IMG/VR virus record: IMGVR_UViG_3300021400_000154
Span: 32,001-96,000 of that record
DNA: 64,000 bases
Source: a virus
Lineage: Duplodnaviria > Caudoviricetes
Strand: one strand, 5' to 3'
This document shows positions 1,138-62,787 of this stretch, piece after piece; the stretch's first letter is position 1; each line of letters opens with the position of its first letter. A program made the position numbers and the translations under genes. The notes under the pieces are model-generated. The model did not search any database, was not told the DNA's origin, and was given only the letters and a program-made list of their open reading frames with translations.

Positions 1138-2784
1138 ATGTAGAAAGCAAAGCTTGGTGTAATCACAAACTGGGATGTAATGGAAGAGCAAATCATTTTC
1201 TACAGGACGCACCTTGATGTCTTCATTGAAGATGCTTTTCCACCGATTAAACTCAGCAGGGACCAGCATGTGATCGCAAGACAGATTGGCAACTGCAGAG
1301 ACTCAGATGTTGTACAGAACCGTGGTGCTGGTAAGACATGGCTGATCGCACTCTGCTGCCATGCATTGTGTGTCCTGTACCCGCAGACATTTGTCGCGGT
1401 GTGTTCCAAGACAGCGAAACAGGCGAAGCTGGTTCTGGAAAAGCTGAAGTTCCTTGCTGAGCGCAACCCGAACATCGCGAACGAGCTCACGTCGAACAAC
1501 GCCAGGAGTCTTGTGCAGATCTCGACAGACAAGGGCAGAGCCGTATACAAGAACGGATCCAAGTTTGAATCCTTTGCGATGGAGAGTGCCCGTGGCCAGC
1601 GCGCAAAGATTATTGTGGTTGACGAGGCGCGGGACGTGGACCCTGAGATTGTGGATGCCGTTGTTTCTCCTTTAAAGAACTACCGTCGGGAGATCTCGTT
1701 CGAGAACAAGTTCCCGGATTTTGCTTCAAAGACGATTCGCATCACATCCGCATGCGAGAAAGCCCTCCCATATTATCAGGAGTTTGTGAAGACCCTGAAG
1801 AACATGGCCGCAGGGGATCAGCAGAGCTTTGCTTGCGCCTTGGATTGGAGGGCTGCTGTGGAGAACGGTGTCAACCAGGAGGAGTACTTCATCCACGAGC
1901 GCGAGAACAAACCCGATGTTGTCTTCGCCATGGAGTACGAGTCAAAGTTCGTAGGCTCCACCAATAACTCAGCCTTCCCGTATGATCTGACGCAGAAATG
2001 CCGGACGCTTCAGAAGGTTGAGCTGGAACAGCCGAAGAACTCCAAAAGCCGATATGTGATATCCCTGGACATCGCGACCAGCGATGCGGACACGGCTGAC
2101 AACTCCATTCTGAGTGTATTGAAGTTCATGGAGAAGTCAGACGGCACGTTCAACAGAAAGCTGGTCTACATGCGATCCTTCCATGGAGAATCGCTGGACG
2201 TGCTGGCAGAGGAAGTTCGTAAGCTGTATCACCTGCACTTCCCGAACGCGGAAAAGATCATATACGACGCCAGAGGTCTGGGTGACAGCCTGGACAGGTT
2301 CTTCGACAAGGAATGGGTGGACTATGCCAGCGAGAAGGAATACCCACCGCTGGTGGTTGATGACGAGCCGAACATGAATGCGGCTGCTCAGCCGATGCTG
2401 CATCCATTCCGGGCGATCCAGGCGCTGAACCAGCGGTTATACACAAACATGCGTGTGGCGCTGGAGAAACAAAGGATTGAACTTCCGATCCCCAGCAGGC
2501 TGCTTCAGTCGAAGGAGCTTGAGCGGGACGAGAAGCAAAAGATGTCCATGTATGAAAAGGCCATATATGCAGAGGCTGACGCCCTGCAGTTTGAGATGGG
2601 CAACATTGTCGCAAAGGTGTCTGCCAGCGGCAATGTATTGTACGATACTACAAACATTCGCCTGCACAAGGACCGGTACTCATCCCTGGCGATGGCGAAT
2701 GACTACATCAGCGAACTGGAGAAGGTCAACATCAAGCGTTTCAATCGTGGTGCGCAGTGTGTAGGCCTTGCCAGTGCGTTTTAA
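1138..2784 (+). CDS. terL: terminase large subunit (TAG as codon 2)
   Basis: Walker A NRGAGKT, Walker B IIVVDE, RNase H-like SLDIA...KDRYSS. The GAGGTG RBS precedes ATG 1138, followed by TAG 1141 in frame with ORF 1180 (M*KAKLGVITNWDVMEEQ). Confidence 0.9.
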
Positions 2785-2835
2785 ACATGTGATTAATAAT
2801 CAGGGTACCTTAGTTTCGAAGAGGAGGTGAGGAGC

Positions 2836-3054
2836 ATGGCGCACGCTCTTGTGAGAAAAGACGACGAACCTATCAGCCCGAGTATATGCGAATGGCTGGT
2901 CGACGACGAAAACGATGTGTCGGAGCTCCCCACCATTATTTCAAAAGGCGCGCATGGGGAACCGACGTGTTACCCTGGCTCTGTCGCGTATGTGGCGGAC
3001 CTGTAGAAGATCTGGATGCTTGGCGTTGACAGCGTCTGGCACCAGACCGTATAA
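2836..3054 (+). CDS. small virion-associated hypothetical protein (1 in-frame TAG)
   Basis: GGAGGTGAGGAG RBS; MAHALVRK...PGSVAYVADL*KIWMLGVDSVWHQTV-TAA, TAG at 3004. Confidence 0.7.
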
Positions 3055-3068
3055 AGGGGTTGGTGCGT

Positions 3069-3323
3069 ATGGATGTCGTGACGTATGCAGCAGCAGTCGG
3101 GAAAGCGAAAAGCCTGATCGACGAACACATTCACGATCTCCCCATAGCGTCCAAGAGCAAGCTTGGGGCCGTCATGATTGGGGACAGTCTGGACATCTCC
3201 GGTACAGGCAAACTGTCAGTCCTGACAGCCAGCGACGCCGAAAGCGACAACACGCTTCCGATCACATCGGCAGCGGTTTATACGGAGATCGGAAACATTA
3301 ACGCACTGTTGGCAACGATATAA
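3069..3323 (+). CDS. hypothetical virion protein
   Basis: ORF MDVVTYAAAV...EIGNINALLATI within the late operon. Confidence 0.6.
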   Translation: MDVVTYAAAVGKAKSLIDEHIHDLPIASKSKLGAVMIGDSLDISGTGKLSVLTASDAESDNTLPITSAAVYTEIGNINALLATI

Positions 3324-3365
3324 TGCTGGTGCTTATGCACAGCGATTACGAGAGGTGATGGAAGC

Positions 3366-5183
3366 ATGAGCACCGCAACAGAGATTGCGCGACTTCAAAC
3401 GGCGCGCAATACCATCCGCAACAAAATGATCGAGATTGGCGTAGGCCAATAGACAGACCATCTGGACGATCTTGCTCAAGAGATCGATAACATACAGAAC
3501 AGGGGATCTGTCAACGCAACGGTTCGCGAAGGCGAATCCTACACGATCCCTGCGGGATACCACAGTGGTTCCGGTACGGTTACCGGTATTGCAGGTGGTG
3601 GCAACTATTCGCTGCAGGCGAAGTCTGCCACACCCACAAAGCAGCAGCAGAGCGTCACGCCAGACAACGGATACTATGGCCTGTCCAGCGTGACCGTTGC
3701 TCCGATCCCTGCTGCGTACCAGGACGTTACTTCTGTGACGGCAACAGCGGCTGACGTTCTGGCGAACAAAGTGATTGTGACGTCAACAGGCGCTGTTACG
3801 GCAGGCACCATGGCGAACAACGGCGCAATCACGAGAACGCTGGACACTACAACGACCAGCACAACGATTCCTGCCGGATACCATAATGGATCCGGTACGG
3901 TCAGTATCACAACGGAAACCAAGACTGCCACGCCGACCGAGGAAACACAGGTTGTGGCTCCTACGCCGGGGAGTGTGCTGTCGTCAGTAACGGTTAATCC
4001 GATTCCGGCTAACTATATTGACACGACCGATGCAACAGCTTCATCGCTGGAGATCCTGGAAGGGTATTCCGCATATGTGAACGGTGAACTGGTGGAAGGC
4101 GAGCTTCCGATTAATCCAGCGCCAGCTGTTACTTTGACTGTCAGCAATCAGGAGTATTCGCAGGAAGAAGGATACTACGAAGGTGAAGGAATCATCAATG
4201 TGGCATCTGATTCTTCATATGAACAGAACGCCGTTGTTCCGACAACATCTCAACAGCTGATCCAGGGTGAGAACAACGCTTTCCTTACGGCTGTGTTAGT
4301 TGATGCCATCCCGAGCGAATACCAGGATGTTTCCGGCGTTACCGCTACGGCTGGCGATGTACTGGATAGCGCGTCATTTGTAGACGCGAACGGTGATACA
4401 ATAACCGGTACAATTCCTGCGAATGCGGCTGTCACCGAAACGCTGGACACGTCGAACTCGACCTATACGATTGATCAGGCGTACTACAGCGAGGGCGGGA
4501 CTGTGACCGTCAACTACGAGACGATCGACGCTTCGGACCCTGTTGTTCCGACAACGGAACCGCAAATCATCACAGGAACCAATAACGCATTTCTTGATTC
4601 TGTGTGTGTTGACGCCATACCGTCAAACTTTGTAGATACGACTGACACTACGGCTACGGCTGCGAACATTCTCGAAGGCCAAACAGCCGCTATTAGCAGT
4701 GGCGTTGTGACTGGCACAATGCCAGATTGCAGTGGAACAGATGATGAGTTCCTGTTTCCAAATGATTTTGTTCTCGAAGGGCATACCATTCCTGCTCATA
4801 CCAGCTGCACTATAGCGCAAGGTTATCATGATGGTACTGGCACTGTGCAGATATTTGTTGAAACTGCTACGGCTACTCCCACAAAGCAAGCACAGACAAT
4901 TTATCCGTCCGATGCACACACTTTGTCTTACGTAACCGTCAACCCAATTCCAGACAACTACATCGACACTACGGACGCGACGGCGACAGCAGCTCAGATT
5001 CTGACAGGAGCCTCGGCATACGTGAATGGGGTGAAGGTCACCGGCGCAATGGCGAACAACGGGAGCGTGACAACCACGATTGACGGACTGACTTCTATGA
5101 GCGCAACTATACCTGCCGGGTATACGACGGGAGGTACAGTGACCCTCACGAACGATATTGAACAGGCTCTTGCCGCAATTTAA
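3366..5183 (+). CDS. repeat-containing fibre protein (head or tail fibre; 1 in-frame TAG)
   Basis: ATG 3366 after GAGGTG RBS; TAG at 3450, continuing in frame into ORF 3690. Repeats DATATAxxILxGxxAYVNG / TIPAGYHxGSGTV / TPTxxxQ. Confidence 0.75.
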
Positions 5184-5195
5184 GGCGGTGAGTCT

Positions 5196-5708
5196 ATGAG
5201 CATACAGAGTGAGATCAATAGAATCGCTGACAATGTCGCTCGTGCCAAGGTTATGATCAGCAGCAAGGGCGTAACGGTTCCAAGCGGCGCGACATCTGAC
5301 GATCTCGCTCCGCTGATCCAGCAGATCAAGTCTGTCGAGGACGACGTCCTGATCGTGCACATCACATGGAACGGAAGCTCCGGGACTTCGGATCTCTAGT
5401 ATCGGGAGATCGCATTGGCCTTCGCAGGAGACTCGGAGGCACTAAGTGAGTTCATCGCAGGGTCTTCTGTTTTGGATGGCTACGGAACGCCGAGAAAGAT
5501 CTTCGCTATCGCCCAAATCACAGGACAGACAAGCGTCTACGGAACCTCCACTTTTTCCGGGACGTTGGTGGAAATGGACACGACGAATCAGAGGGCTGTC
5601 TTCGCTTTGTCCCGTTCTCTCCTGGTCTGGGTGGATGCCAACTATAGCGCGGGCATTATTCAGACGGTGACGCAGGACAGCACAACCAACGCCCTCAATA
5701 TTTCTTAA
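5196..5708 (+). CDS. fibre-associated protein (1 in-frame TAG)
   Basis: ORFs 5196-5399 and 5415-5708 are in the same frame, joined over TAG 5397 (GTSDL*YREIALA); N-terminus MSIQSEINRI is typical of fibre-associated genes. Confidence 0.7.
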
Positions 5709-5719
5709 GGAGTGATAGC

Positions 5720-6592
5720 ATGGCACAGGACATCTCCCTGTTCGGATCAACCTATCAGTCTGTGCCGTCTGTCTCCTTACCAAAGGTCGGAGGCGGGACA
5801 GCGACGTTTACGGACGTTACCGGGACAACGGCTGTCGCTTCCGATGTGGCTCCCGGCAAGACGTTCTACCTTGCCAATGGTCAGGCCGCGACAGGCACGG
5901 CCACTGTTCAGCTTGTCCCGTATGCGATCCGCCCGGACGCAGAACTGGTGAAGACGGTGTACTGGGATCAGATGCTGGTGGCAGATCTTGGCATAACGAT
6001 CCCGGCCTACTCAACCAGCGCAAAAACTCTTAAGGCAAGCGCTGTGCTGGACACCTACGCCGGTGACAAGTCGAACTACAATTACTGGCTTGTGCTGCGG
6101 ACGCTGACGATTCCGCAGTACTCCATTGAGACCAAGGCCAAGGGCAGAGAGGAATACATGCTGACGAGCTACGTCTATGAGATGTGCGACTTGCCAGCCA
6201 ACAGTTTCCCGGCGGTCATTGACCCGACCAAGAAAGTGACGGCTGCGTCCGCCCCAGCCCCAGCCTTGGGTGTTGCCAGACACATCTACTGGTCAAGCGC
6301 CTCCGCTTTGGCTGTCAACACAGCTGTGACATACGGCCTTGGCGTGACTGTAGCTGCTCCAACATGGTCTGGGAACACGTTGAACATCAACAGCGGGTCG
6401 ATCACAATCCGTGGACATACGACCTATTTTGTCAACACATTTTATAATGCGCTGACGGATGCAAGGATTCAGGTGAAAGTGGACGTATACCGTGCGCCAA
6501 AGAATCATTTGAACGTTGACGGATGGAGTGCCCAACAGAATCTCAACCGTCTGATCGAAACCGTCAACAGCGCAACAATGAATTTATTGTAA
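5720..6592 (+). CDS. fibre-associated virion protein
   Basis: 290 aa; contains TTAVASDVAPGKTFYLANG, resembling the fibre repeat; AAGGAG RBS. Confidence 0.6.
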   Translation: MAQDISLFGSTYQSVPSVSLPKVGGGTATFTDVTGTTAVASDVAPGKTFYLANGQAATGTATVQLVPYAIRPDAELVKTVYWDQMLVADLGITIPAYSTSAKTLKASAVLDTYAGDKSNYNYWLVLRTLTIPQYSIETKAKGREEYMLTSYVYEMCDLPANSFPAVIDPTKKVTAASAPAPALGVARHIYWSSASALAVNTAVTYGLGVTVAAPTWSGNTLNINSGSITIRGHTTYFVNTFYNALTDARIQVKVDVYRAPKNHLNVDGWSAQQNLNRLIETVNSATMNLL

Positions 6593-6607
6593 CAGGAGGT
6601 GAGGCCC

Positions 6608-8266
6608 ATGGGCTTTTGGGATTTCATTGGTTCATTCAGGAGACAGCCCTCGCAGCAGGCGGAGCCTCCAGTAAAGAGAGAGAGGCCGGGAAAGGTCGCG
6701 GTCGGAGCGAAGGATGATGAGGAAAGGAAAGACATCCAGTCTTACAATAACTCAAACATCACGTTCTCCGGCGAACTTTACGGCTACGATTATGATTCGA
6801 TTCTTCGGAACAAGCAGCAGCACATATACGATCTGTATAAGCTGTAGGATTACTACACAGACGCAGATCCGCTGATTCACGGCATTGTGAAGCACGTTTA
6901 TGTGCCGTACAGCCTTGGCTCCTCCTGGACGCTTCATGGCGCTGCGGAGAAGACGATCAAGATCTATGAAGAATTCTATAAAAAGATTCGTCTCCGGGAA
7001 AAGCTCAGTTCGATTATGTTGGAATACTGGAAGTACGCGAACGTGTTTGTTTATGTGTACCACGGTGTTCCAATTACCCTGCCTCCGACAAAATGCAGGA
7101 TTGGTAACGTATCCTTCAACGGAGAGCCCGTGGTGGACTTCGACTGCCAGTCGATTTACAACGAATGGCGGCAGAAGAACTACGTCATCAAAGAGAACTG
7201 GGTGAAGGACAACGACCTGGAGACATACTTCGATGGCTTCCCGGAGGAAGTGCAGGAGGCCATCAATCGCGGAGAAATGTACGCGCAGCTGAACCCGAAG
7301 TACTGCAAGGTACTCCAGGCAGACAAGGAAACCTGGCAGCGCTATGCCATTCCGTTTATCTCCGCTTGTCTGCCAGCTCTGGCCAAGAAGGAACTCATTA
7401 ATAAGTACGAGGTAAAAATGCTGGATCTTGGCATCCATTCTTTCGTACATATCAACTATGGTGACGAGAAGAAGGGCGCCGATATGCTTCCTGAAATCAA
7501 TCAGTTAAGAGAGACCAGGAACATATTCTCCAGGGCCATGAGCAACTTCCCGCTGGCCGTCACAAACCAGCTGGCCCATGCGCATGTGGTCCAGCCAGAT
7601 CTGGATAACCTCTTCCAGTTCGACAAGTACAGAGACTGTAACAACGACATCCTGTCTGCCGGTGGCATCAGCGGTCTGCTGGTAGCCGGTCTCAGCACGG
7701 ACGGTTCAACGTTTGCTTCTGCCCAGGTGTCCATGCAGACAGCTGCGGCCAGGATCGAGTCCTGCCGGGATGAGGTCTGCGAACTGATGAATAAGATCAA
7801 TGTCTGCATCCAGGAAGAGCTGGCGAACACCCATGCCTATAACGTGAGCAAGGTTCCAGAGTTCAGCTTTATGCCGCTGGACATGGCCGGAAAGAAAGCG
7901 CTGCGCGAAGCCTGTGAGAAGCTCTGGAAGGAAGGCGTTGTCTCCACAGAGACATATATGACAGCCTTCGGATATTCCATGGAGCGCGAGACTTCCCGTC
8001 GCAAGAGCGAGGCCGGGAACGGCACCGATGAAGTGCTGGTTCCGAGGGATATTGTGAACGAGCTGAACAAGATCAAGCTCCAGCAGGAGACCTCTCCGCC
8101 TGAAGAGCCTGTTCAGCAACCTGAAGAGCCTGATCAACAGGAGACAGAAGAAACGCACATCGGCAGGCCAGAGCTTGACGACAGCGAACGGACTTCTGAC
8201 CCAGAGAACGCGATACGTTCCAAACAGCCCAAACCTTCCAACCCGGAAGGCAGTATGGGTGAGTAA
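6608..8266 (+). CDS. portal protein (1 in-frame TAG)
   Basis: ORFs 6599 and 6887 are in the same frame, joined over TAG 6845 (LYKL*DYYTDADPLIHG); ~552 aa; located upstream of protease/capsid; C-terminal GRP motif in an acidic tail. Confidence 0.8.
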
Positions 8267-10311: not shown

Positions 10312-11325
10312 ATGAGTGATATTATCGTGAATCGCGACAGCAAGCTCATTAAGGTGCTTGCGTCTCAGGCTCGCGGCGAGCGGGTCGACTAGGCCAACGT
10401 GGACGAGGCCGCTTCCATCATTGCCGAGCTGTAGAAGGACCTGAATCCCCAGAATCGGCATCAGATCGCGTAGGTCATCGCGTTTACCGTGGATGAGCTG
10501 CAGAAGCGCGAGCTGGATTTCCTGAACCAGGTGGCTGACCAGAAGTCTGTCGGCTATCAGGACAAGGCCGTGTTTAACATGCGCACTGGCGGCATCAAGG
10601 CCTACATCCAGGCCAAGGGTTCCACCACCAAGCGCAGCTATGTGGCAGATCGTCAGGTGACGGTTGAGACCGATGAGATCTCCGCCCGTCCCGCCATCAA
10701 CATCGTGGACCTGCGCGCTGGCCGTGTGAACATGGCCGACCTGATCCGCGAGGCGAACCGTGAGATCACCAACAAGAAGCTGGCTCTGGTGGAGAATGTG
10801 CTGCATACTGCCATGCAGACTTACTCCAGCCCATTCTATGCTGCCGGTACCGGCATCGTGAAGGCGACCCTGGACGCTCAGCTGGCGTACTTCCGTCGGC
10901 TGGGTCCTGTCACCATCCTGGGCGACCAGGCTGCTGTTGCTCAGCTGGCTGGCCTGACCGGCATGGAGATGAACCCCGGCGCGACCGGTGGCAACCTGTT
11001 CACCGAGCGCAGCCATGGCATGATCGATGAGATGAACGACAATGGCTACATCGGCCGTTACAATGGCGCTGCAGTGGTGTCCCTGGCGAACACCTACTTC
11101 GACGGCACCACCACCCCGGTGCTGGCCACTGACTGGCTCTACATCATCCCTGGTGGCATGAGCGGTGATGCCCGCAACCTGAAGATCGTCAACGAGGGCG
11201 GCGTGAATGCGTTCGAGTCCCAGAACATCGATGATCTGGTGTACGAGGTCCGCCTTGACACCTGGTTCGGCGCTGGCTTTATCTCCGGCAACCTGCCCAC
11301 CATCGGCGCTTACAAGATCAACTGA
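10312..11325 (+). CDS. major capsid protein (3 in-frame TAGs)
   Basis: AAGGAGGTG RBS and ATG 10312; TAGs at 10390, 10432 and 10471 in frame with ORF 10489; 337 aa; high-expression codon bias; followed by a terminator. Confidence 0.85.
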
Positions 11326-12705: not shown

Positions 12706-13440
12706 ATGTCAAAACCATATGTGCCAGCAGGCACGAAGACAAGGTTTTTCCGTCCGCCGACACTGGCGTAGGATTTTACGGAGTTTCTTGATGGGGACAT
12801 CCCGAACATGGTCATGGACTTTACGCTGTTGACCAACTGGTATGACCAGTTCAAGGAAGGCTACGAGCCGAAGATCATTCGCGGGGAGTTCTACACAGAG
12901 ACTGCCAAAAGTCGTTACACTAACACGGATAACAACGTAAACATCCGCTGTGATGTGGCCAGCGGCATCAAAAAAGGCGACATGGTGATCGCCAGTAACA
13001 ACAATGATGTGTATATCCTGGACTGGGAGATTACGCTGCAGAGCAATAACGCGCCTTCCCGAGCGCTCAGGTGCAACTTCGACCTGACGGTCAAAAGGCA
13101 TCATCCGGAGATTACGGATGACAGAGGCTATCTGCTCAAGGAGGAAGGCGACGATATCATTGTGGACGCGCTTCCTGCGAACGGATACTTCTACGACGGC
13201 AGAAACGCGAGATATCTTGCGTCCAACGGAACGCCTGGTGTTGCGCCCGAGGTGAACGCTCTGGTAACCGTGCAGTACAACGAGCAGACCAAGAACCTTC
13301 GAGTGGACGATGTGTTCAAATGGGGCGGCGACATCTACCAGATCACAGATATCTCTGTGGCAGGTTTGAACAGGGCTGGTACCAGCGGCTGTCTGAACCT
13401 ACAGACCATACAGAAACCGGGTGGCATCTATGACAAATAA
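12706..13440 (+). CDS. head-closure/neck protein candidate (1 in-frame TAG)
   Basis: AAGGAG RBS and ATG 12706; TAG 12769 (PPTLA*DF) in frame with ORF 12808. Confidence 0.65.
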
Positions 13441-14228: not shown

Positions 14229-15143
14229 ATGAGCACTTATGTTCCAGCCTGGAAAGGCTACATCGCAGACGTTCCGCAACTCTGGTTCAAGAGATGCGAT
14301 GGCAACGTCTATCACTTTGACGAGCTGACCCAGGCCAGCGTTCAGCCGGACACGAACACGATCGACATCAACGCCGGTCAGAGTCTTTATCCGGTGGCCT
14401 ATCTTCCCGGCCAGTCCACTATGACGATTGATGTCACCAGCGGACAGTTTGATGCTGATATGTTTGCGATGGCGAACAACGCGTAGTTTGAGGATGGGTC
14501 AATCGAGATCCCCGGCTCTGCTTCGGAAGCCATCGAAATGTATACGCAAGAGATTGCGCAAGGCATGACTGTTATGCACATCAAGCTGCACAACTTCCTG
14601 GCCTACAAGACGGCAAGCGTTCAATTTTCTCTTGATGGGGAGGACGTCGGTGACCCTATTGTTTGTTCTGACACACAGGACGCGGACAGCAAAACGAGCT
14701 TCAAAAATGCTGTCGCTCAGTTTTTCCCGCATGATCCAGGCCAGCAGATGGGAGTTATTATGCCTGAAACCGGTGATGATGTTGACATACAGATTAACTT
14801 CAACTCTGCTCCTTCTCTTCCGGAGATGCCAGCTGACGGTGGCACAATGGAGTAGGAAGGTCGTGTTTCCAGCGGCAAGGTCGCGAAGTTTGACAACAAG
14901 TCCGCTGCCGTCGGCGAGGCTGTTCTGAAGTGGCCTGTATATGCCAGCGGAGACGACTGTTCCGACTCTGCGATCAAGGGCTACCTGATCATGCACATGT
15001 ATCGTGCGCGGATTACGAGAATGCCTGGGTTTGACGATTCATACAAGAGCGCCTCCACGTTCCAGTTCCAGCTCTCTGCCATGGATGCGAAGCGCGATGA
15101 CGGGAAGATTTACGAGCTGGCGTATAAGGAAAACGATCTGTAA
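14229..15143 (+). CDS. tail tube protein paralogue 1 (2 in-frame TAGs)
   Basis: TAGs at 14484 and 14853; the read-through product ends DAKRDDGKIYELAYKENDL-TAA; N- and C-termini are collinear with the 15225 gene. Confidence 0.75.
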
Positions 15144-15224
15144 CAATATGATTGACTACACGAAGTCTGTAGGGGGACAGCGTGTTTTCAATATATACAA
15201 AAATAAACCAAAGGAGTGTTGCAT

Positions 15225-15992
15225 ATGCCTAATACATATGTGCCCGCCTACAAGGGCTACATTGCGGACGTGCCGCAGGTCTGGTTCAAGCGTTGCGATG
15301 GCGAAGTGTTCCACTATGACGAGATCACTCAGGCTTCCGTGAACCCACAGACTAACTTCACTGAAATCAACGCCGGTTGGTAGCTGTATCCCGTGGCTTA
15401 TCTGCCCGGTCAGTCCACCATGGAGATCTCCATGACATCTGGTCAGTTCAACGCCGATCTGTTCGCGATGGCGAACAAGACCAAGTTTAAGACGATTGGT
15501 CAGGATCCTCAGGACACCGAGAAGTATAGCACCTTCAAGACCGAGTCTCTGACTCCTGACGCCACCACTCACAAGGTGACCCTGGCCGAGACTCCTGTTG
15601 AAGGCACCGTTGCCATTCGTGGCCTGGAGCTGACCACTGACTTCACCGTGTCCGGCAAGGAAGTCACCTTCACCGATGATAAGATTGCCGGTCCCGTCGA
15701 GATCTCTTATGAGTATGAGGTGAATGGCGCCAACGTGATCAAGATTGACAACAAGTCTGCTGCTACCGGCGAGGCCGTCATGAAGTGGCCTGTGTACGGT
15801 GCTGGAGACGACTGCACCGACAGCGCTGTGAAGGGCTATGTGATTCTGCGGATGTACCGTTGCCGGGTCACCCAGATGCCTGGGTTCGACACCAGCTATA
15901 AGAGCGCGGCCACCAATGCCGTGACCTTCTCCGCTATGGACGCGAAGCGCGACGACGAGAAGATCTACGAGATCGCCTACATCGACGCCTAA
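15225..15992 (+). CDS. major tail tube protein paralogue 2 (1 in-frame TAG)
   Basis: AAGGAG RBS and ATG 15225; TAG 15381 (EINAGW*LYPVAYLPGQST); high-expression codon bias. Confidence 0.8.
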
Positions 15993-17627: not shown

Positions 17628-18455
17628 TTAATGCAAATACATGTAAAACAATATATCTGGGCCGAACGCATATTTATCTATGGCTATGTTTTGCGAAGGA
17701 ACGAATACTTTTTTTACTGGACTTTTGTAGAAACAAAATTTAGCAATCGATGTTATGCTCGGTGGCAAGATTACAGTATGTAAATTTTCAAAACCGCAAA
17801 ACGCCTCCTCTTCGATTGTAAGGATTCCATTTCCAATGATCAAACAGGACAATTGTTCTGCATGCCCGTTTGGATACCAGGAAGGAACTTTATCGTCTAT
17901 CAGCTCATAAAAATTAAAAGATCTTCTCCCTATCGTTGTAATGTCCGTGCCGTTAATCGTACTAGGGACACAGAGAATCTCTTCGCCTGATAAATCTCCG
18001 TAGGTCAACTTATTTCCTGTTACTTTCCAAAACGTAGTTATTGTGTTTCCGTTCAGCAACGTACCGTTTGCTTTATAAGCGAAATGTAAAAGCAAATCAG
18101 AATATGACATAGAAATCCTTTTAGCGTCATATATTAGCCTATCTGACAACTTGAAGTATAAGCGTATTCTATGAATGCCATTTACACAATTATGAGATAT
18201 TAAATGCGCAGTTTGCTCAGTTCGCCCATTGGAAAAACGAGACGCTGCATCTGCAGAAATGGTATGAAAAGCATTCATATCTATATCCCTTTGTTTGGTG
18301 ATCATGTATTCACCAAACAACATATGCTGATATTGGTTGTTGCTTTTACTCGTCGAAACAGTATATTGTAATAAAGCTATTTGTTTGTATTCGGCATCGC
18401 TTATTTCGACTTCTGCAACAACACATCCGTCAATCATGAAACAGTTAATCTTCAT
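17628..18455 (-). CDS. moron: BspA-type leucine-rich-repeat protein
   Basis: AT-rich and antisense to the tail operon; LRR_5-like repeats TIEEEAF.GFENLHTVILPPSITSIAKFCF; no TAG; ends in TAA. Confidence 0.7.
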   Translation of the reverse strand: MKINCFMIDGCVVAEVEISDAEYKQIALLQYTVSTSKSNNQYQHMLFGEYMITKQRDIDMNAFHTISADAASRFSNGRTEQTAHLISHNCVNGIHRIRLYFKLSDRLIYDAKRISMSYSDLLLHFAYKANGTLLNGNTITTFWKVTGNKLTYGDLSGEEILCVPSTINGTDITTIGRRSFNFYELIDDKVPSWYPNGHAEQLSCLIIGNGILTIEEEAFCGFENLHTVILPPSITSIAKFCFYKSPVKKVFVPSQNIAIDKYAFGPDILFYMYLH

Positions 18456-18529: not shown

Positions 18530-21500
18530 ATGCCGAATGATCAAGTAGTACTTGATGTCGTTTTTCAGCCTCAAGTAGAAAGCCTGATTCAATAGTTGCA
18601 TCAGGCATCACAAATTGCGTCAGATGACGTTCAAACAATGCTTACCGAATCAATAACTCAAGCTGGATTATTGGCGAAAGAATCTGAAGGCTTTTAGTCT
18701 CAAAGTATGCCTCAGGAATATGTTCAAATGGCACAATCTTTAATGAATGCCATGAATAAACAAGTTCAAGACATCATCGCACAGCTTAATAAGGCATCGC
18801 AAGATGCAACTTCTTCTGGGTTTGAGGATGGTATTATCCAAAGAATAAAGACTACAATAGGTTCGCTTACTGCGAACATTATAGATCAAACTTTTTCAGT
18901 TGGCGCTATGAAAAATATTGTTGGTCAGATAGCACCTGATATGGCACAGTCTTTTGCCCAAAACTACAGAGATTACTATTTGCAAGCAAGTAGACTTATG
19001 GCAAGGCAAGCCAAAAACCCAGCAACAAACGGCGAATGGATGAAGTACCTTGATTTAGATTCTGGCTTTGCCGCTGGTCAAAGAGCTATGATGCAACATT
19101 TTGGGTTGTCAGAAGCTCAAATGAGACTGATGCAAGAATCAGTAGTGCGCAGCCAGCCAAATCAAATACGTATCGATTACGCCAGAAATGCTGTTCGATA
19201 TTCAGGTGGGGCCATGAAGAAAGTTGGCGTGATCCCACAATATATGACATATCAAGAACGGCTACCTGCTTTTTATCAGGGCTTAAGCAACCAACCACAA
19301 ACAACAACGTTGTCCCCTGATGAAAGGCAGGCTTTACAAGCAGAAGTAAGTGATGAGCAATGGAAAACAATCAGAAGTATAGCCGCTAGCAACCCTTCTT
19401 TTGAAAAAGCTCTTATTATGGCTGGATTAGCCCAAAGAACAGTCCATAACAAAGCGGCAGGTTAGTTAGTTATGCCACAAAAGCCAGTAAGTACTGAATT
19501 GGTTGCAAGAGCGATTGGCCATTTACATAGAGATATAATGATTCCTTAGCTCGAGGGAGCGCCATCTAATTACAGAAAAATCACATAGACATCTGGTGAG
19601 GATCAGATGGCAATGGCAAATGCAGATTAGAAAACAGTGTTAGATATTATCGATGCGTTTCATAAACTTGCTCCATTGGGTATTTCTCCCGTATATGGTG
19701 ATGCTGTTACACGCCCATATAATCCACAGACTGGCGTTTCGCGTGTACGAGGTGCGAAATCTACTGCAGCTCCAGAAAGATATCAGATTATGAGTTTAAC
19801 ATGGGATGATTTCCAAAAAGGAGTTATGCTTGATCCACATGGCCCTGTTCAAAGCGAATATGAAGAAGGCGCAAGGGGCACATCGACAAACAAGATGATT
19901 CTTGAATCGGGTTTCACAAGAATGCTCGGCATGCATGGTAACAACACGTTCGGTAATGGAAGCAAAACAGATAATAGTTCGCCTTCTATAATACAAATTG
20001 ACTTGTAGGATCGATTATTAAAGAAACGTAAAGACGGAGAGTTAGAATGGGAAAATGGACACGTTGTTCAAGATGAAGATACTGCGAAGCTAATCGAGCG
20101 TATATTTACTATTCCGCAAGGCCATTCTCACCCGAGAGTTCAGTTTGGCCAAACTGGTATTCATTATGTTCCTACTAATGTGAAGAATGGCGTGATTACT
20201 CTTGGACGGGAAGATGCTGTTGAAAGTGCAATCAGCGATTCTATAAGACTGACAGGGCATAATGTGCTCGCTAATATGGTTGACCCGAATACTGTGTTCT
20301 AGACATATACTGATTTGAATAAACAAATCGAGGCATACAACAGAGACTTAACTCCGTCTGTGCCTATTGAAAGAATGGGCGGAAAGCTTCCTGATAAAAA
20401 TAGAATCGCATTTGTTGATCTGTCTTCGTTTACAGGGAAAAAAGATAGTAAGACTGGCCGTAATGACTATCACGATGGTTCATCCTTTTTTATGCCTGGC
20501 TTTATTCCAGGTGGCAATGCAACATACAGAATCGCCGGACAAAAGGGCACAGCTCAAACAGTTGATTTCCGTGCAATGATTAGAGATTTATACGGCGATG
20601 TTGATCATTTTTATTTGCCTGCATTGAATGCTCCGAAAGAATACAAAGATGCATTTAACCAGCATGGTATTGAAAAAGTTAGAGAAATGATGCAACAACG
20701 AGGAGAGTTGTAGAAATTCGAAGAATATTTCCTTGATGCGTTACAGTTTGATGCGCTTATATAGGACTCAGTCATTAAATCGCCTGCGTACAAAGGCTTG
20801 ACGAACGCACAGGCGCAAGATCTTTTTTATAAAACAAAAGAAACCCCTATGGGTATGGGCATTGTACAAACAGCAAGCCAGTTTTTGACAAAAGGGAAAC
20901 TTTCTCTTGGCAGACAGTTATCTCAGCATTTAGACTTAACACCAGAGCAGATAGCAGAAAACAGAGAGTTGTGGGAGAACTATATAAATATGCTCAGATA
21001 TAGGCCAGAAGAGACTGCAAAGAGGTTGTTTTCAAATCCTAACAATTCTTTGGATTCTAAGATAATGGCTAACCCTGGATTAATGTGGGATGACCCAGAA
21101 GCAAGGTAGATTGTGCTAAACGAAATATCTAAAGCTATGATTTCTATGGCGAACGGAGAATTGTTTTAGGATGGATTATCGCCTTCTGCTCTGGCCGCAG
21201 CGAACCCAGCAAAGATATTAATGGATGCAGCCAGCAGAAATGGCCTTAAGATACAGAATCCATTACTTGCGCGAAGGCTTACACTTGGAACTGGTAAACT
21301 TGCTGCAGGATTCTTGGATGATGACGAGATAGCAGTTGGAAGATGGCCAATGACACCTGGAGAACAATATAGTGCCCAACTATAGAAAGATTACTTGGAG
21401 GCTGGAAGAAAGTACGGGCTCGCAGATGACGTTTTTTATACTGATGCCGGATTTATCGGAGCAATGGGAGGCGGAGATGTCGACGGCGACACGATCCAGG

Positions 21501-41641: not shown

Positions 41642-41651
41642 GGTGAAACGA

Positions 41652-47702: not shown

Positions 47703-48212
47703 ATGCGAATGAACGGAAAAACAACCCACGTCCTCTTCCATGGAGAGCGTGTTACCGAGTCCCCTCAGCTTTATCAGTATGACTATGGCCAGAGCCTGGT
47801 GTTCGACGACATCACCTTGCCGGAAATCTACGAGGTGCTGTTCAGCAACGGCATTACGCAGGAGGCCAAGACGGTGCTAGGCAATGCGGATGGCGTCCAG
47901 ATCCCGGACGAATATCTGACCACAGGCAAGAATGTGCTGGCGTGGATCTTCCTCCACGACGGCGATGATGACGGCGAGACCGAGTATGTGATCCGGATCC
48001 CGATCCGTCCCCGCTCTGGGCTCTCAGACGATGAGATCACCGAGGAAGAGCACAGCATTGTGTCAGACCTGATCGCACTGGTGGACAGCATGAAGGAAAC
48101 GCTCTCTGCTTATGAGACGAGGATTCACACTCTGGAGGAAAGGATTCCGGCACTTGGCGGCTGGAAAAACAACGGAGGTGAGACCGATGATTCAACCGCA
48201 GGATCTGATTGA
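47703..48212 (+). CDS. BppU-like upper baseplate domain protein
   Basis: LYQYDYGQSL...VQIPDEYL..G...AWIFL pattern. Confidence 0.5.
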   Translation: MRMNGKTTHVLFHGERVTESPQLYQYDYGQSLVFDDITLPEIYEVLFSNGITQEAKTVLGNADGVQIPDEYLTTGKNVLAWIFLHDGDDDGETEYVIRIPIRPRSGLSDDEITEEEHSIVSDLIALVDSMKETLSAYETRIHTLEERIPALGGWKNNGGETDDSTAGSD

Positions 48213-49005
48213 ACTGTTCCAGAAGGCGTATACGGAGCGCTGGGGCTACATCTGGGGAACCGCAGGAGAGACCTGGACAGAAGAGAAACAGGCTGACGCG
48301 GTCAAGCAATACCATCTGGCTGAAGCGAACAAAGGCAACGTCAGCCGCTGGAAGATGACGGCGCAGTACGGTGCCAAGTGGATCAACCGCAGAGTCGCTG
48401 ACTGCTCCGGCCTCTTCTCCTGGGCCTTCAAACAGCTGAAGGGCTATATGCCCCACGGCAGCAACAGCATGTTTAAACAATACACGACAGCCAACGGCAA
48501 GATCGTCGGTGGTCGCAAGGAAAACGGAGAAGCTCTGGCTCCGGCAACAGCAGTGTTCAAGTACAACGACAAGGACGGCTACTACCATGTAGGCCTGTGC
48601 ATCGACGGCACCAAGGTGATCGAAGCACAAGGTACACAGGCCGGTGTGACGATCTCCGACGTGAAGAAGTGGCACTACTGGGGCGAACTCAAGGGCGTGA
48701 ACTATAAAACGGAGGTGAAGCCTATGGAGTATCAGAAGGCGGTTGTCATCGCGGATGGCGGTGTAAACTTCAGGTCTGGCAAATCCACCAGCGCCACCAA
48801 GATCGACGTGATCCCCAAGGGTGCAGAGATCGAGGCGGCTGATGCTGGTAATGGCTGGAGCCAGGTCAAGTACAACGGTCGGACAGGCTACTGCATGTCC
48901 AAGTATATCAAGTATGGAGAAGCGGCTTCCGACAACGAGGCCGTGAACATCATCAACAACATCATCAAGGAGCTTGGGCAGCTGAAGGAAATGCTCGAGC
49001 CGTAA
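48187..49005 (+). CDS. endolysin (NlpC/P60-type peptidase + SH3b)
   Basis: WGYIWG, ADCSGL catalytic Cys, YHVGLCI His, IEAQG; C-terminal VNFRSG..SH3-like GW..VKY.G.TGY. Confidence 0.85.
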   Translation: MIQPQDLIELFQKAYTERWGYIWGTAGETWTEEKQADAVKQYHLAEANKGNVSRWKMTAQYGAKWINRRVADCSGLFSWAFKQLKGYMPHGSNSMFKQYTTANGKIVGGRKENGEALAPATAVFKYNDKDGYYHVGLCIDGTKVIEAQGTQAGVTISDVKKWHYWGELKGVNYKTEVKPMEYQKAVVIADGGVNFRSGKSTSATKIDVIPKGAEIEAADAGNGWSQVKYNGRTGYCMSKYIKYGEAASDNEAVNIINNIIKELGQLKEMLEP

Positions 49006-49861: not shown

Positions 49862-50179
49862 ATGGATTGGACAACCATTATTGTGCTGGCGATTGGCCTG
49901 GTGTTTACTGTTCTGACCGGCGTGGCTGTGAAGCATGTGATTCCTTGGCTGAAGGAACGCCAGCTGTACGATGCTGCCATGATTGCCGTGAACGCAGCTG
50001 AGGCTGTGTATGGTCGTTATCATGGCGAGGAGAAGCTGGCTGCTGCGCTGAAGTAGCTGGCCGACAAGGGCTTCGATGTTAAGTCCGATGTCGTGATCGA
50101 GGCGCTGAACGCTGCCTGGAAAGAGATGGACAGGGCGATGATTGACGCTGGAGAGAAAGAGATCGTGAAGGCGGAGTAA
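49862..50179 (+). CDS. phage holin, LL-H family-like (1 in-frame TAG)
   Basis: N-terminal TM, IPWLK, AVNAAEAVYG...GEEKL; read-through of TAG 50054 gives 105 aa ending in TAA. Confidence 0.75.
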
Positions 50180-50521: not shown

Positions 50522-51493
50522 TTAGCCGGTTAAGGCGGCATACATCTCATCGAAACCGTCCCCTCTCAGGCTGACGTAGATGTTCATGGTGACGCCGATG
50601 TCTGAGTGCCCGAGAAGCTTGGAGAGAACTTTGACATCAACGTTTTTGTAGTAACAGTTGGTCGCAAAGGTATGCCGGAAGGCATGGGCTCCTCTGTACT
50701 CTACTCCTGCTGCCTTGCATACCTGGCGAATGTGTTTCGCAAGATTGTTGTAGCTGAGCCAAGAGTCTCCTGTTCCCGGAAACACCCATGTACTGTTCAA
50801 CGGCTTCAGCCTTTGCAGGAGTTCGATTGCCTTTGGAGTCAGAGGAACTGTGCGATTGCTGGCCTTGGACTTTGCGCTTGGTTGATACGCGCAAGAAGTT
50901 TTTCCTGATGGATTCAGAATGGTGGCTTCCACGCGAAGCCGCTTGCGCTGGATGTCGATCTTGTCCCAGCGAAGTGCCAGGACTTCCCCTGCTCTCAGGC
51001 CTGTCTCAAGCATCAGACCGATGGCGATCACTGCCGGATGGTTCTTTGTCTCGATGACATTCCAGATGCGTTTCTGCTCTTCCTCTGTGTAGGGCTCCAC
51101 GACTTTGGTGTGCTTCTGTAGCTTCTCATCATTGGGAAGTCTGACGCCAGCGGAAGGATCAGCAGGGATCAGATGCATGGCAGCCGCTTGTCTGAGGGGC
51201 GCAGTCACGATCTGCATCTGCTTTTTTATTGTGGATAAGCCATACCCTTTCTGGGCAAGCTCGTTGATGTAGAGCTGGATATGGAAAGCAGTAATGTCCT
51301 TGATCTGCATTGTTGCTATCCTGTGCTTCAACAAGGATTTGTATGAGCACAGCAGCCTGTTCAGCGTTGCAGATTTGACGGATCCTGCCTTGAACATATC
51401 GAGCCAAGACTTGACATAGTCTGCGAGAATCATGGATGGATACATGTTCACATCTCCTATTTCTTCGCAGCGAGTGAAGTTGTCAAGGTTCAT
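50522..51493 (-). CDS. int: tyrosine recombinase (integrase)
   Basis: ETGLRAGE (R), HAFRHTFAT (HxxR), LLGH, NIY (Y); SAM-like N-terminal domain; AGGAGG RBS before ATG 51493; no TAG. Confidence 0.92.
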   Translation of the reverse strand: MNLDNFTRCEEIGDVNMYPSMILADYVKSWLDMFKAGSVKSATLNRLLCSYKSLLKHRIATMQIKDITAFHIQLYINELAQKGYGLSTIKKQMQIVTAPLRQAAAMHLIPADPSAGVRLPNDEKLQKHTKVVEPYTEEEQKRIWNVIETKNHPAVIAIGLMLETGLRAGEVLALRWDKIDIQRKRLRVEATILNPSGKTSCAYQPSAKSKASNRTVPLTPKAIELLQRLKPLNSTWVFPGTGDSWLSYNNLAKHIRQVCKAAGVEYRGAHAFRHTFATNCYYKNVDVKVLSKLLGHSDIGVTMNIYVSLRGDGFDEMYAALTG

Positions 51494-51533
51494 AGCAGTC
51501 CTCCTTTTAAAAAATAAGGGCTGCCATACTGGT

Positions 51534-51562
51534 ATTATACCAGACATGACAGCCTATGTAAA
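51534..51562 (-). promoter_or_regulatory. sigma70 promoter for the integrase
   Basis: TTTACA-N17-TATAAT on the - strand, overlapping an inverted repeat (GGCTGCCAT...ATGACAGCC). Confidence 0.65.
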
Positions 51563-59017: not shown

Positions 59018-59102
59018 CGCGGAGTACAGGATTTGAACCTGTGGTATGTCGCCATACGACGGTTTTAGAGACCGCTGCAATAAACCACTCTGCCAACTCC
59101 GC
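59018..59102 (-). tRNA. amber-decoding tRNA (anticodon CUA) with serine-type body
   Basis: GCGGAGT-TG-GCAGAGTGGTTTATTGC-A-GCGGT-CTCTAAA-ACCGT-C-GTATG-GCGA-CATAC-C-ACAGG-TTCAAAT-CCTGT-ACTCCGC-G; anticodon at 59066-59068; long variable arm; G73. Confidence 0.92.
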
Positions 59103-59105
59103 ACA

Positions 59106-59190
59106 CGCGGCGTGGAGGATTCGAACCTCCGGAATCTTTCGATTCGACGATTTTCAAGACCGTAGCCTTCAGCCTCTCGGCCAACGCCGC
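59106..59190 (-). tRNA. tRNA-Ser(UGA)
   Basis: Acceptor GCGGCGT/ACGCCGC, loop CT-TGA-AA, variable arm GAATC-GAAA-GATTC, G73. Confidence 0.92.
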
Positions 59191-59749: not shown

Positions 59750-59757
59750 GATTGTTG

Positions 59758-60092: not shown

Positions 60093-60675
60093 ATCAGAGG
60101 TCCTCTGATCAGCAAGCATTGCAGCCTTCGCCATACTTCCAATACCCTTCACACATGTTCGGTCACCGTGAAACCAGAGGCTGAGCCACAGGTAGCGACC
60201 CTGTAACTTCTCTGGCCTACCCAAAGGGACAAGCACGGAGGCGATTGACTACGCCTAAGTTTCAGCCAAACCATTCAGCAATAATCATATTATTATTAGT
60301 TAATGTCGCGTTGGCCTACTCCTACCCCAAACCTTACTCACAGGACATTTCTGCCCCTCCCGACACCGGTCGCGTCTTGGTGGCATTTCCAGAGTACCGA
60401 CAGTCGCCAGCTAACGTCTTTTCTGGATTCGTGGGCTGGTTGGGCCCCTTCTATTGTGACGCCGTAAGGAATGGTACCTTTGTGTGCGAATACGAAAGCG
60501 CGCAACCTTATCATTGGGCTTTGCTTTCAACCCTATCGCTGGCAGTTACCTGCTTCGCGTCCCCTCTTGCGAAAGTATCCCATCGCGAGAGACTGGATGA
60601 TGTACGGTCGCCCCAAGCAGTGTGGTTGGCACCTCTGCACTTGGGTCAATGCTTGCTGATCAGAAGACCTCTGAT
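60093..60675 (-). ncRNA. large structured ncRNA, ROOL/GOLLD-like candidate (583 nt)
   Basis: Ends form a 29-bp inverted repeat (60093-60121 with 60647-60675; one G-U); no credible ORF; inside a phage tRNA array. Confidence 0.6.
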
Positions 60676-61151: not shown

Positions 61152-61913
61152 AGAAGCCGCTGGTTGCGGCTTGTCGTCAAAGTAATGTATATCTGCGAGG
61201 ATTTCGTCTATGCGCTTTTCTACATCCTCGTCATATCGGATTTCGTAAAGCGGAATATTGTGTTCTTTGCAGTAGTCACGTTTGAGCTGATCTGTTTCTT
61301 CGCGTTGTTGTTTGCCAAAATCACCGCGATCTTTATAATGTTGTACTCCTTGATATTCTATCAAACACAGCGTTTCTTTGTTTTTGTTTTGCAATGCAAA
61401 ATCAAACTTAAGCATATAACCGTATTTGCTTTTCAGATCGCTAAACTTATATTGCGTAGAGAATTCTATGGATTTTTGAAGCAGTATTTTTCTTGTTGTT
61501 TCTTCGCCTATAGAAATGATGCATCCACAGCTAGTAGTGCTCCCATCTCGCAAATGATGACTACTTACTATTGTCTCATTTCCGCAATCACATTTGCATC
61601 TCCATGTTACGCATCCATTTTTATTCCTCCCGGAGCATTTACCAATAACCAACAAGTGTCCAAATCTTTTCCCCATTATATTTTTTACTTTTATTTTGCG
61701 ACTTAATTCTGATGCTTTTTGTCTGCGGTAGCACCCACAACTTTTTGTATCGCCTCTCAAAAGACTGGGCGATCTTACAGTAATTGTATTTCCACAAGAA
61801 CATTCGCATATCCACATCACGTCCTTGTTTCTTTTACTCAAATCTCGTTTTATAACTGTTAGACGTCCAAACGTCATTCCAGTTAAATCTTTCAAAGGCG
61901 GCAAAAAAATCAT
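61137..61913 (-). CDS. free-standing homing endonuclease (two DLTGxxFGRLTV..WxCxCxCG..TKSCGC repeats plus a PD-(D/E)XK/Vsr-like domain)
   Basis: Repeats visible in the translation; FDF...LIEYQGVQHY...KRDYC catalytic region; AT-rich; lies between tRNA-Gln and tRNA-Gly. Confidence 0.75.
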   Translation of the reverse strand: MIFLPPLKDLTGMTFGRLTVIKRDLSKRNKDVMWICECSCGNTITVRSPSLLRGDTKSCGCYRRQKASELSRKIKVKNIMGKRFGHLLVIGKCSGRNKNGCVTWRCKCDCGNETIVSSHHLRDGSTTSCGCIISIGEETTRKILLQKSIEFSTQYKFSDLKSKYGYMLKFDFALQNKNKETLCLIEYQGVQHYKDRGDFGKQQREETDQLKRDYCKEHNIPLYEIRYDEDVEKRIDEILADIHYFDDKPQPAASARLV

Positions 61914-61926
61914 CTCCTTATTACAG

Positions 61927-61998
61927 CTGGGGACAGTGGAGTCGAACCACTACTGTTTGAGTCAAAGTCAAATGTACTTGCCGTTATACGAGTCCCCA
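61927..61998 (-). tRNA. tRNA-Gln(UUG)
   Basis: TGGGGAC acceptor; TTTGA-CT-TTG-AC-TCAAA anticodon arm; G73. Confidence 0.88.
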
Positions 61999-62002
61999 TC
62001 AG

Positions 62003-62076
62003 TTGCCCTGCTGGGACTTGAACCCAGAACACACGGCTTATAAGGCCGCCGCTCTAACCGATTGAGCTACAAGGCA
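62003..62076 (-). tRNA. tRNA-Ile(UAU)
   Basis: TGCCTTG acceptor; GCGGC-CT-TAT-AA-GCCGT anticodon arm; A73. Confidence 0.85.
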
Positions 62077-62090
62077 GTAGTGTGGTATGG

Positions 62091-62345
62091 TTACCACACA
62101 GGATCGTAGTCGCCTACGTCAGAATCAGGGTCAATGCTCAGCTTGGCTTCGATAAAATCGGCCACGGCAGACTCCACAGCGTCGTGGAGAATGGGAACCA
62201 GTCTCTCCAGATCGCTTTTCGTCTTCGCGTACCGCTCCAGATAGCTGTCCAACATGATTTCAATTTCGAGAACGTCGCCGTTCAATGGAACCACTCCTTT
62301 TTTTCTTTCCATTACGTTCATTTTCGAGGTTGCGGATTTTGTCAC
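62091..62345 (-). CDS. hypothetical protein
   Basis: Acidic 84-aa ORF; start uncertain. Confidence 0.5.
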   Translation of the reverse strand: MTKSATSKMNVMERKKGVVPLNGDVLEIEIMLDSYLERYAKTKSDLERLVPILHDAVESAVADFIEAKLSIDPDSDVGDYDPVW

Positions 62346-62787
62346 CGTTCACCCTACCGTATTCCGCGATTAAAACAGCTTCAGCCATGCCGTCTGAAGG
62401 CTTTTTGCAGCGAGAAGTCGGCAAAAGAGAGAGTTCTGGATGCATTTCCTGGCATTTTTCAATGGATTTTTGCTTGTCCGAGCCCAAATCATAGGCTTTT
62501 TTCCATTTTTGAGGCGGTACAAGCAGGGTTTCAATGCCAAATGCTGCCAAAACTCCCTCGATGAAGCCCGCAGACTTGCCGAAGTTGAACATGGAGACCA
62601 CGCCTTGTCCCGGCATGGCTCCAACCTTCTCAACTACGGCATAAATCTGCTCTTCGTCGTGATTTTCGGCGATTTTTCGCATCTCCTGAACGAAAACCTG
62701 GTTATCCCATGGGAAAACCTATGCCCGGGTCTCCCCAAGAATCGCAAAAGCACCCTTCTGACCGGGATCAATGCCGATAACGGTCAT
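62260..62787 (-). CDS. RuvC-like Holliday junction resolvase (1 in-frame TAG)
   Basis: ATG 62787 overlaps the upstream TGA; MTVIGIDPGQKGAFA...RA*VFPW; VEKV, FNFG, PQKWKK, DGMAEA motifs; TAG at 62719-62721. Confidence 0.85.

Follow-up and report, generated by a model that had tools for sequence, protein, structure and literature searches.

What do the in-frame amber (TAG) codons of the structural and lysis genes of a phage such as IMGVR_UViG_3300021400_000154 (Caudoviricetes) mean, and which amino acid, if any, is inserted at them? The window analyzed here is a 64,000 nt stretch, positions 32,001-96,000 of this contig of 110,614 nt, and all coordinates given for the phage are those of the window. 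The contig ends share an overlap of ~107 nt, and the phage genome is thus complete, being circular or terminally redundant with a length of ~110.5 kb; CheckV completeness is 100% and the G+C content is 50%. Two gene blocks are seen with a codon-usage gene caller trained on conserved genes. The plus-strand late block starts just before the window start and ends at 50179, and encodes terminase, portal, capsid, tail, lysis and holin functions; the rest is mostly on the minus strand, which holds the integrase, small regulators, a tRNA cluster, a ROOL RNA and the replication genes. The amber codons represent a real reassignment of the known late-gene kind; their meaning is non-canonical, being very probably serine, and the same phage family has members that read TAG as leucine.

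TAG as a sense codon in the late genes

The late strand contains 82 raw in-frame TAG codons (~80 once the terminase start is set to the ATG at 1138), with no in-frame TAA or TGA across 16,085 codons. They are spread over 15 of the 34 genes, and the genes keep a single frame with no frameshifts. The tape measure gene alone has 57 TAGs and neither TAA nor TGA in its coding frame (frame 0), whereas the other two frames have 100-129 TAA and 101-234 TGA. Open reading frame (ORF) lists made with translation table 11 break the late block into pieces, which are joined in frame when TAG is taken as sense. At 50% G+C the codes are hardly distinguished by the density of naive longest ORFs, and we therefore used a codon-model gene caller, which predicts 116 genes at 86.6% coding density with TAG as sense, compared with 154 genes at 80.0% with table 11. 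Simple ORF coverage of the late block rises similarly, from ~0.78-0.80 to 0.99-1.00. TAG represents ~7% of the serine-equivalent codons in the late genes, and outside of the tape measure gene the TAGs cluster in the 5' third of genes (Kolmogorov-Smirnov p = 0.019).

An earlier, sequence-only reading of the window listed in-frame TAGs in the terminase, portal, capsid (three), tail tubes, tape measure (more than 50), distal tail protein (Dit), tail-associated lysin (Tal; seven), baseplate, holin and RuvC genes, and all are present. It also proposed that the fragments of each gene stay in one frame and that read-through restores intact genes with starts linked to ribosome-binding sites; this agrees with the lack of TAA and TGA in the affected genes and with the GAGGTG upstream of the terminase ATG at 1138.

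For comparison, 27 related IMG/VR contigs were retrieved by their capsid protein, five complete or near-complete relatives were taken whole, and the alignments were limited to real genes. The relatives show either no in-frame stops or TAG only, and several have TAG at the same codons as this phage. Sequencing error, which would have undone the sequence-only reading, is excluded because the same codons are TAG in independent metagenome contigs. Two standard-code relatives (G003 and G004) have unbroken tape measure ORFs of 5,453 and 5,918 codons, showing that the giant ORF is one real gene. An initial residue tally over all ORFs of at least 70 amino acids had Tyr as the top partner of TAG, with TAA and TGA in frame in relatives, an artefact of antisense and off-frame ORFs that was gone when only real genes were used.

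TAG is very probably serine

Alignment with homologues indicates that TAG in this phage very probably encodes serine and not glutamine. We scored candidate amino acids in a Codetta-like manner, summing BLOSUM62 values over the residues found opposite TAG in other lineages, with one vote per lineage. Over 45 TAG columns of this phage serine scores 50.7, alanine 31.3 and glutamine 0.7, and the same scoring ranks serine first in all five other contigs of the clade to which the phage belongs (hereafter the serine clade), and so in six of six genomes. As controls, the method returns the correct amino acid in 2,950 of 2,950 subsamples (45 positions each, 59 sense codons), and scores leucine at 129.5 from 44 columns for the relative G001, whose tRNA(CUA) is leucine-like with A73.

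The codons themselves point in the same direction. Opposite 106 TAG columns of the serine clade the distinct aligned codons comprise 82 for Ser, 40 for Ala, 14 each for Thr, Asn and Gly, and 10 for Gln. All six serine codons occur, and 19 of the aligned codons are AGC or AGT, which differ from TAG at all three bases such that mutational proximity cannot explain them; among one-step neighbours TCG is the commonest (10) and CAG is second (6). The putative tail tube paralogues provide an internal control, in that the motif NAGW-TAG-LYPVAYLPG in paralogue 2 aligns to NAGQ-AGT-LYPVAYLPG in paralogue 1. The paralogous site is Ser52 of paralogue 1 (AGT, 14382-14384), at which four relatives in the serine clade carry TAG. 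The assignment of TAG to glutamine (code 15), given by the sequence-only reading as the usual one in recoded phages, does not apply here, in view of the two scores, the paralogous AGT and the serine-like tRNA described below.

An amber-reading tRNA

A single tRNA in the genome has a CUA anticodon (59018-59102, minus strand; ARAGORN; Rfam RF00005, 58 bits) and it lies 3 nt from a tRNA-Ser(UGA) gene (59106-59190, minus strand). The anticodon loop, CUCUAAA, has the standard 7 nt with U33 and a purine at position 37. The tRNA has a long variable arm with a 5-bp stem and a G (G73) following the 7-bp acceptor stem, features that it shares with the adjacent tRNA-Ser(UGA), and it lacks a G3:U70 pair. 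It is 71% identical to tRNA-Ser(UGA), 79% identical to the CUA tRNA of the relative G002, and less than 50% identical to any tRNA-Leu. From these similarities tRNA(CUA) probably arose from tRNA-Ser(UGA), by duplication and a change of anticodon. The phage also encodes a tRNA-Gln with an unchanged UUG anticodon.

No release factor and no class II synthetase were found in the phage genome. Bacterial seryl-tRNA synthetase does not read the anticodon, and because the phage has no synthetase of its own, tRNA(CUA) would be charged by the host enzyme. The Escherichia coli amber suppressors supD (tRNA-Ser CUA) and supP (tRNA-Leu CUA), which insert serine and leucine at UAG, are similar in that a class II tRNA, with a synthetase that is indifferent to the anticodon, has acquired CUA. 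They are, however, laboratory mutants of host tRNAs directed at rare nonsense mutations, whereas here there is a natural phage gene together with ~80 fixed sense TAGs.

The automatic ARAGORN label for this gene is 'tRNA-Pyl', and a pyrrolysine system was considered and rejected; the variable arm of the tRNA is long and its D loop normal, where a tRNA-Pyl would have a short variable loop and a small D loop, and the genome has no class II synthetase core (PF00587), although pylS and pylBCD were not searched for. We also note that, in the direction of transcription, tRNA-Ser(UGA) and tRNA(CUA) come here (59018-59190) in the opposite order to that in G002 (L019:2355-2531). Exact-match searches of IMG/VR with two suppressor anticodon arms returned mostly unrelated phages with class I CUA tRNAs. 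In one unrelated 135-kb phage contig (L081; IMGVR_UViG_3300002494_000025, 800-7514) a class I tRNA(CUA) of 76 nt has the same 22-nt anticodon arm as the tRNA(CUA) of this phage; a tmRNA gene follows directly, and an ORF of 1,421 codons in the vicinity has 24 in-frame TAGs.

Early and late genes differ in their use of TAG

The density of in-frame TAGs is 5.1 per 1000 codons on the late strand and no more than 0.9 per 1000 on the early strand. In-frame TAGs number 14 at most over the 15,808 codons of the early, minus-strand genes, and most of these are ORF-extension artefacts, lying upstream of the likely start codon; the integrase gene is free of TAG. A primase-helicase-like early gene ends in ...EEMPF-TAG where its orthologues end in ...PF-TGA or TAA, and the TAG is backed up by a TGA four codons further on; one or two other early ORFs probably also end in TAG. 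These observations run counter to a genome-wide recoding, as proposed by the sequence-only reading, and to its view that a homing endonuclease is the only gene to end in TAG; no homing endonuclease-like ORF was identified by hidden Markov model searches of the ORFs between the terminase gene and the next gene.

A likely scenario is that the amber codon is reassigned to serine in a manner dependent on time and gene class, the timing being modelled by analogy on that of Borges et al. for gut phages (bioRxiv 10.1101/2021.08.26.457843). The minus-strand early and lysogeny genes, including the integrase gene, would be expressed in the standard code, and the minus-strand tRNA cluster would supply a tRNA-Ser with its anticodon changed to CUA, to be charged with serine by the host seryl-tRNA synthetase. 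The tRNA would be made before the late proteins, and as it accumulates the ~80 TAGs of the late operon would be read through, including those at terminase codon 2, in the capsid gene (where three fall within the first 54 codons), and in the tape measure and holin genes. Without the tRNA, for example in a lysogen, the virion and lysis proteins would be incomplete, and TAG could thus act as a translational lock.

Weighing of alternative explanations

Several observations weigh against this scenario. The split between early and late genes is not absolute, with true minus-strand in-frame TAGs in the RuvC gene and in two genes beyond the window. The 57 TAGs in one gene require very efficient suppression in competition with host release factor 1 (RF1), and no RF1 antagonist was identified, although the low copy number of the tape measure protein per virion may make a low yield tolerable. 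The residues opposite the TAGs of this phage are Ser at a frequency of 0.24 and Ala at 0.25, as compared to ~0.47 and ~0.1 at true serine codons, and the margin of Ser over Ala is 19 at TAG versus 44-67 at real serine codons. Lastly, capsid codon 54 (10471-10473) is TAG where relatives down to 50% identity have a nearly invariant Gln (CAG, in 14 of them); TAG at this codon is common only to this phage and its closest relative, L015, and reflects a Gln-to-Ser change that is tolerated or else hints at ambiguous decoding. We take the Ala-rich columns to be tolerant sites of small residues at which TAGs arose, and codon 54 to be a single CAG-to-TAG transition.

Apart from the stop codons in essential genes, nothing speaks for a dead phage or for errors of sequencing or assembly, and such an origin is hardly credible given that there are no TAA or TGA breaks and no frameshifts in the late-strand codons, that contigs from other samples have TAG at the same sites, that the genes of standard-code relatives are unbroken, and that the genome is complete, circular and encodes the matching tRNA. 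Another possibility is that TAG is not reassigned and is a leaky stop, such that partial read-through attenuates or truncates the late proteins and the full-length products are a minority. In at least one early gene TAG does serve as the terminator, at a stop site that is conserved, neither an RF1 inhibitor nor an RF2 gene was found, the metagenome-assembled genomes (MAGs) with related phages encode prfA, and simple arithmetic shows that read-through of 95% per codon over 57 TAGs would give only ~5% full-length tape measure protein. Leaky termination is nonetheless unlikely, as the genome has a dedicated cognate tRNA(CUA), the essential single-copy functions of terminase (interrupted at codon 2), portal and capsid need read-through, and the TAG sites show serine-like constraint and make up ~7% of the serine-equivalent codons of the late genes.

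As to the amino acid, reading TAG as glutamine under code 15, as in the crAss-like, Lak, Garnet and Topaz phages, would accommodate capsid codon 54, the second place of CAG among the one-step neighbours (6 versus 10 for TCG), the presence of a tRNA-Gln(UUG) in the phage and the published phage cases, which are TAG=Gln. It is very unlikely here, with glutamine at 0.7 against 50.7 for serine over the 45 columns, AGC/AGT and TCN codons predominating in the aligned columns, and a sole CUA tRNA that is class II and serine-like with G73 while the tRNA-Gln retains UUG. Alanine, or an ambiguous decoding across several small residues, would fit the equal frequencies of Ala and Ser at the TAG sites of this phage and the second rank of Ala in every genome of the serine clade. 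This too is decidedly unlikely, since the tRNA does not have the G3:U70 alanine identity pair and does have the long variable arm and G73 of tRNA-Ser, the BLOSUM scoring prefers serine in all six genomes, the paralogous tail tube site is an AGT serine codon, and the sites conserved among multiple relatives are serine (portal 83, capsid 27, codon 22 of the gene at 12706, tail tube 56 and Tal 322).

Leucine lineages in the same family

Serine, our preferred meaning of TAG in this phage, is not the only one in the family. The alignments indicate that three related contigs (G001, L086 and L097) use TAG as leucine, and that the standard code prevails among the relatives. In G001, 35 of the 44 aligned in-frame TAGs are on Leu columns, and the aligned codons include CTG (36), CTT (22), CTC (16), TTG (15) and TTA (10). 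In its tRNA(CUA) position 73 is A, the CCA is encoded, and the D arm is the same as in a relative's tRNA-Leu(UAA). L086 has 12 TAGs, 10 of them on Leu columns, and L097 has four of five. No TAG column is common to the serine and leucine groups. The partial contigs G009 and G010 of the leucine lineages have no tRNA genes, and suppressors are therefore not seen there.

In an unrooted tree of six concatenated head proteins, made without bootstraps, the six contigs of the serine clade are monophyletic (Shimodaira-Hasegawa-like approximate likelihood ratio test [SH-aLRT] 100). G001 pairs with L086, and L097, whose assignment rests on five sites, is placed elsewhere, with standard-code contigs between. 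This topology requires two or three separate code changes. A reasonably probable scenario is that one family of ~100-kb integrase-bearing Clostridia siphophages has recoded TAG two or three times, to serine in one clade and to leucine in two lineages, each time apparently because a class II tRNA carried by the phage, of a kind charged irrespective of the anticodon, had its anticodon changed.

Among other features of G001, in-frame TAGs are frequent on both strands, at 4.3 and 2.9 per 1000 codons with ORF-extension artefacts included, and recoding there may be less confined to the late genes than in this phage. Also in G001 (L018:1575-1648), two tRNA-Thr genes flank a tRNA to which ARAGORN gives an undetermined anticodon of two bases ('tt').

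Relationship to known recoded genomes

Borges et al. state that in phages whose code differs from that of their host they saw only TAG-to-Gln and TGA-to-Trp changes, and argue for a special susceptibility of the glutaminyl and tryptophanyl enzymes; TAG-recoded gut phages with suppressor tRNAs (Sup-CUA) include the crAss-like and Lak phages and the temperate Garnet and Topaz clades (bioRxiv 10.1101/2021.08.26.457843). Proteomic validation of TAG-recoded gut phages has been published (PMC9523058). As in stop-recoded phages generally, there is here one type of in-frame stop, a gain in coding density, a matching tRNA, and enrichment in late and lysis genes with avoidance in the integrase gene. The similarity to the gut phages of Borges et al. 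is extensive: recoded stops accumulate in the structural and lysis genes but not in the integrase gene, there is a suppressor tRNA but no phage synthetase, there are standard-code relatives and presumably a standard-code host, and the proposed role is the gating of late translation. Unlike in those phages, the tRNA here is of the serine type and the alignments favour Ser, the same family has lineages with TAG-to-Leu changes, and there is no RF2 gene.

Neither TAG=Ser nor TAG=Leu in a phage was found in the phage-recoding literature searched, in which the reported or assumed changes are TAG=Gln and TGA=Trp or Gly. In the NCBI tables (Biopython copy) TAG as sense stands for Q, L, Y, E or W and in no table for Ser, while TAG=Leu is known in green-algal mitochondria (same tables) and in some ciliates (PMC11687900). 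The phyllopharyngean ciliates have independent reassignments of UAG to Leu and Gln with matching suppressor tRNAs (PMC11687900), and thus resemble the phage family in that one stop has repeatedly been reassigned to different amino acids within one lineage; they differ in that theirs are eukaryotic nuclear genomes with constitutive codes.

If TAG does encode serine in this phage, and leucine in its sister phages, TAG=Ser would be a natural code that is absent from the NCBI tables and from the phage-recoding literature searched, and natural codes would be more diverse than the current tables have them. It would also show, contrary to Borges et al., that the amino acid taking over a stop is set by which synthetases ignore the anticodon. 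Surveys and annotation pipelines treat amber-recoded phages as code 15, and translations would be wrong at every TAG wherever it means Ser or Leu. A family with standard, serine and leucine codes offers a natural comparison for asking how code switches in phages come about and why, and could be used for testing the idea of a lysogen lock on late genes. Amber suppressor tRNAs for Ser and Leu that occur naturally and function in Clostridia could also serve as tools.

Lifestyle, host and distant relatives

The sequence-only reading considered the phage to be temperate. In keeping with this, a tyrosine integrase gene (50522-51547, minus strand; PF00589, 7e-30; phrog_1, 5e-65) is present and is TAG-free from its ATG, with the table-11 ORF beginning after an upstream TAG; no integrated copy was found, a search of species-representative bacterial genomes giving no close prophage.

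A Clostridia host is pointed to by the endolysin with SH3 and NlpC/P60 domains, the LLH-type holin, GAGGTG as a ribosome-binding site, distant similarity of the portal to proteins of Bacillus and Clostridium phages, and the MAG contigs of relatives. The more distant relatives sit on contigs of Acutalibacteraceae and rumen Lachnospiraceae MAGs; both MAGs encode prfA, and these bacteria therefore terminate at TAG, which bears only indirectly on the host of this phage because the relatives concerned use the standard code. A distant relative of the head and tail module (L100; contig CAVEOA010000025.1), with a 42% identical capsid, is binned with an Alloprevotella (Bacteroidota) MAG, and this may be a binning artefact, given the Clostridia hosts suggested by the rest of the evidence. 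Among cultured phages, those closest in portal protein are the ~80-kb Bacillus siphoviruses Slash, Stahl, Staley and Basilisk, which are very distant, with ~22% identity over 74% of the protein.

Late genes and other features

The late genes described here are on the plus strand. The large terminase gene (1138-2784; phrog_2 terminase large subunit, 4e-23) has an ATG at 1138 following the GAGGTG Shine-Dalgarno sequence, and the TAG at 1141 is codon 2, a position that is Ala in relatives. The portal gene (6599-8266) is assigned by phrog_2739 (5e-19) and by tblastn to annotated Bacillus phage portals, and its TAG (6845, codon 83) corresponds to Ser or Ala in relatives. The 10312-11325 gene product is an HK97-fold major capsid protein as judged from an AlphaFold model of moderate confidence (predicted local distance difference test score 60), which has Foldseek matches to phage capsids (E ~3e-6). 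Sequence searches of the Protein Data Bank with capsid and terminase gave no matches, and Pfam yielded little for the head genes. The capsid TAGs are at 10390, 10432 and 10471 (codons 27, 41 and 54); codon 27 is Ser in most standard-code relatives, and codon 41 is Val, Ala or Thr. A head-tail region gene (12706-13440) has one TAG (12769, codon 22), which is Ser in six of seven standard-code relatives.

The putative tail tube paralogues 1 (14229-15143; TAGs at 14484 and 14853) and 2 (15216-15992; TAG at 15381, codon 56, within the motif noted above) are in the expected position and are 45% identical to each other, and both match only a generic virion structural protein family (phrog_2729), weakly for paralogue 1 and at 2e-14 for paralogue 2. 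Codon 56 of paralogue 2 is Ser in six of seven standard-code relatives. The giant tape measure gene (18530-34969) has 5,479 codons including the 57 TAGs, and orthologues in relatives have 4,210-5,918 codons; PF10145 (PhageMin_Tail, 3e-26, at ~residues 3143-3346) is the single Pfam domain found, and the gene has a G+C content below that of the rest of the genome.

The Dit gene (35030-36220; phrog_33, 5e-19) has a TAG at 36128 (codon 367), and read-through narrows the gap to the next gene to 12 nt. That gene encodes a Tal-like protein (36233-41641; PF06605 Prophage_tail, 1e-9) with 1,802 codons and seven TAGs, among which codon 322 is Ser in three of three standard-code relatives. It is followed by a gene for a Gp10-like baseplate-type protein (41622-43568; PF21939 Gp10_C, 6e-7) with a TAG at 42039 (codon 140). 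In the lysis region the endolysin gene (48112-49005; NlpC/P60 and SH3_3) has no TAG, and the LLH-type holin gene (49862-50179; PF09682, 1e-5; phrog_6918 holin, 1e-10) has one at 50054 (codon 65).

On the minus strand, the gene for a RuvC-like Holliday junction resolvase (62260-62787; phrog_1770, 3e-33, residues 1-147) has a TAG at codon 23 (62719-62721) inside the conserved domain, and the alignment to the G002 orthologue runs across this position.

Among various other features, we note a lone minus-strand gene within the late operon (17628-18455), encoding a BspA-type leucine-rich-repeat protein (PF13306, 1e-11), which looks like a moron-like insertion. A tRNA-Met(CAU) gene (1043-1114, plus strand) lies directly upstream of the terminase start and is the sole tRNA on the late strand. 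A full-length ROOL RNA (60103-60668, minus strand; Rfam RF03087, 278 bits) is located in the tRNA cluster between tRNA-Thr and tRNA-Gly.

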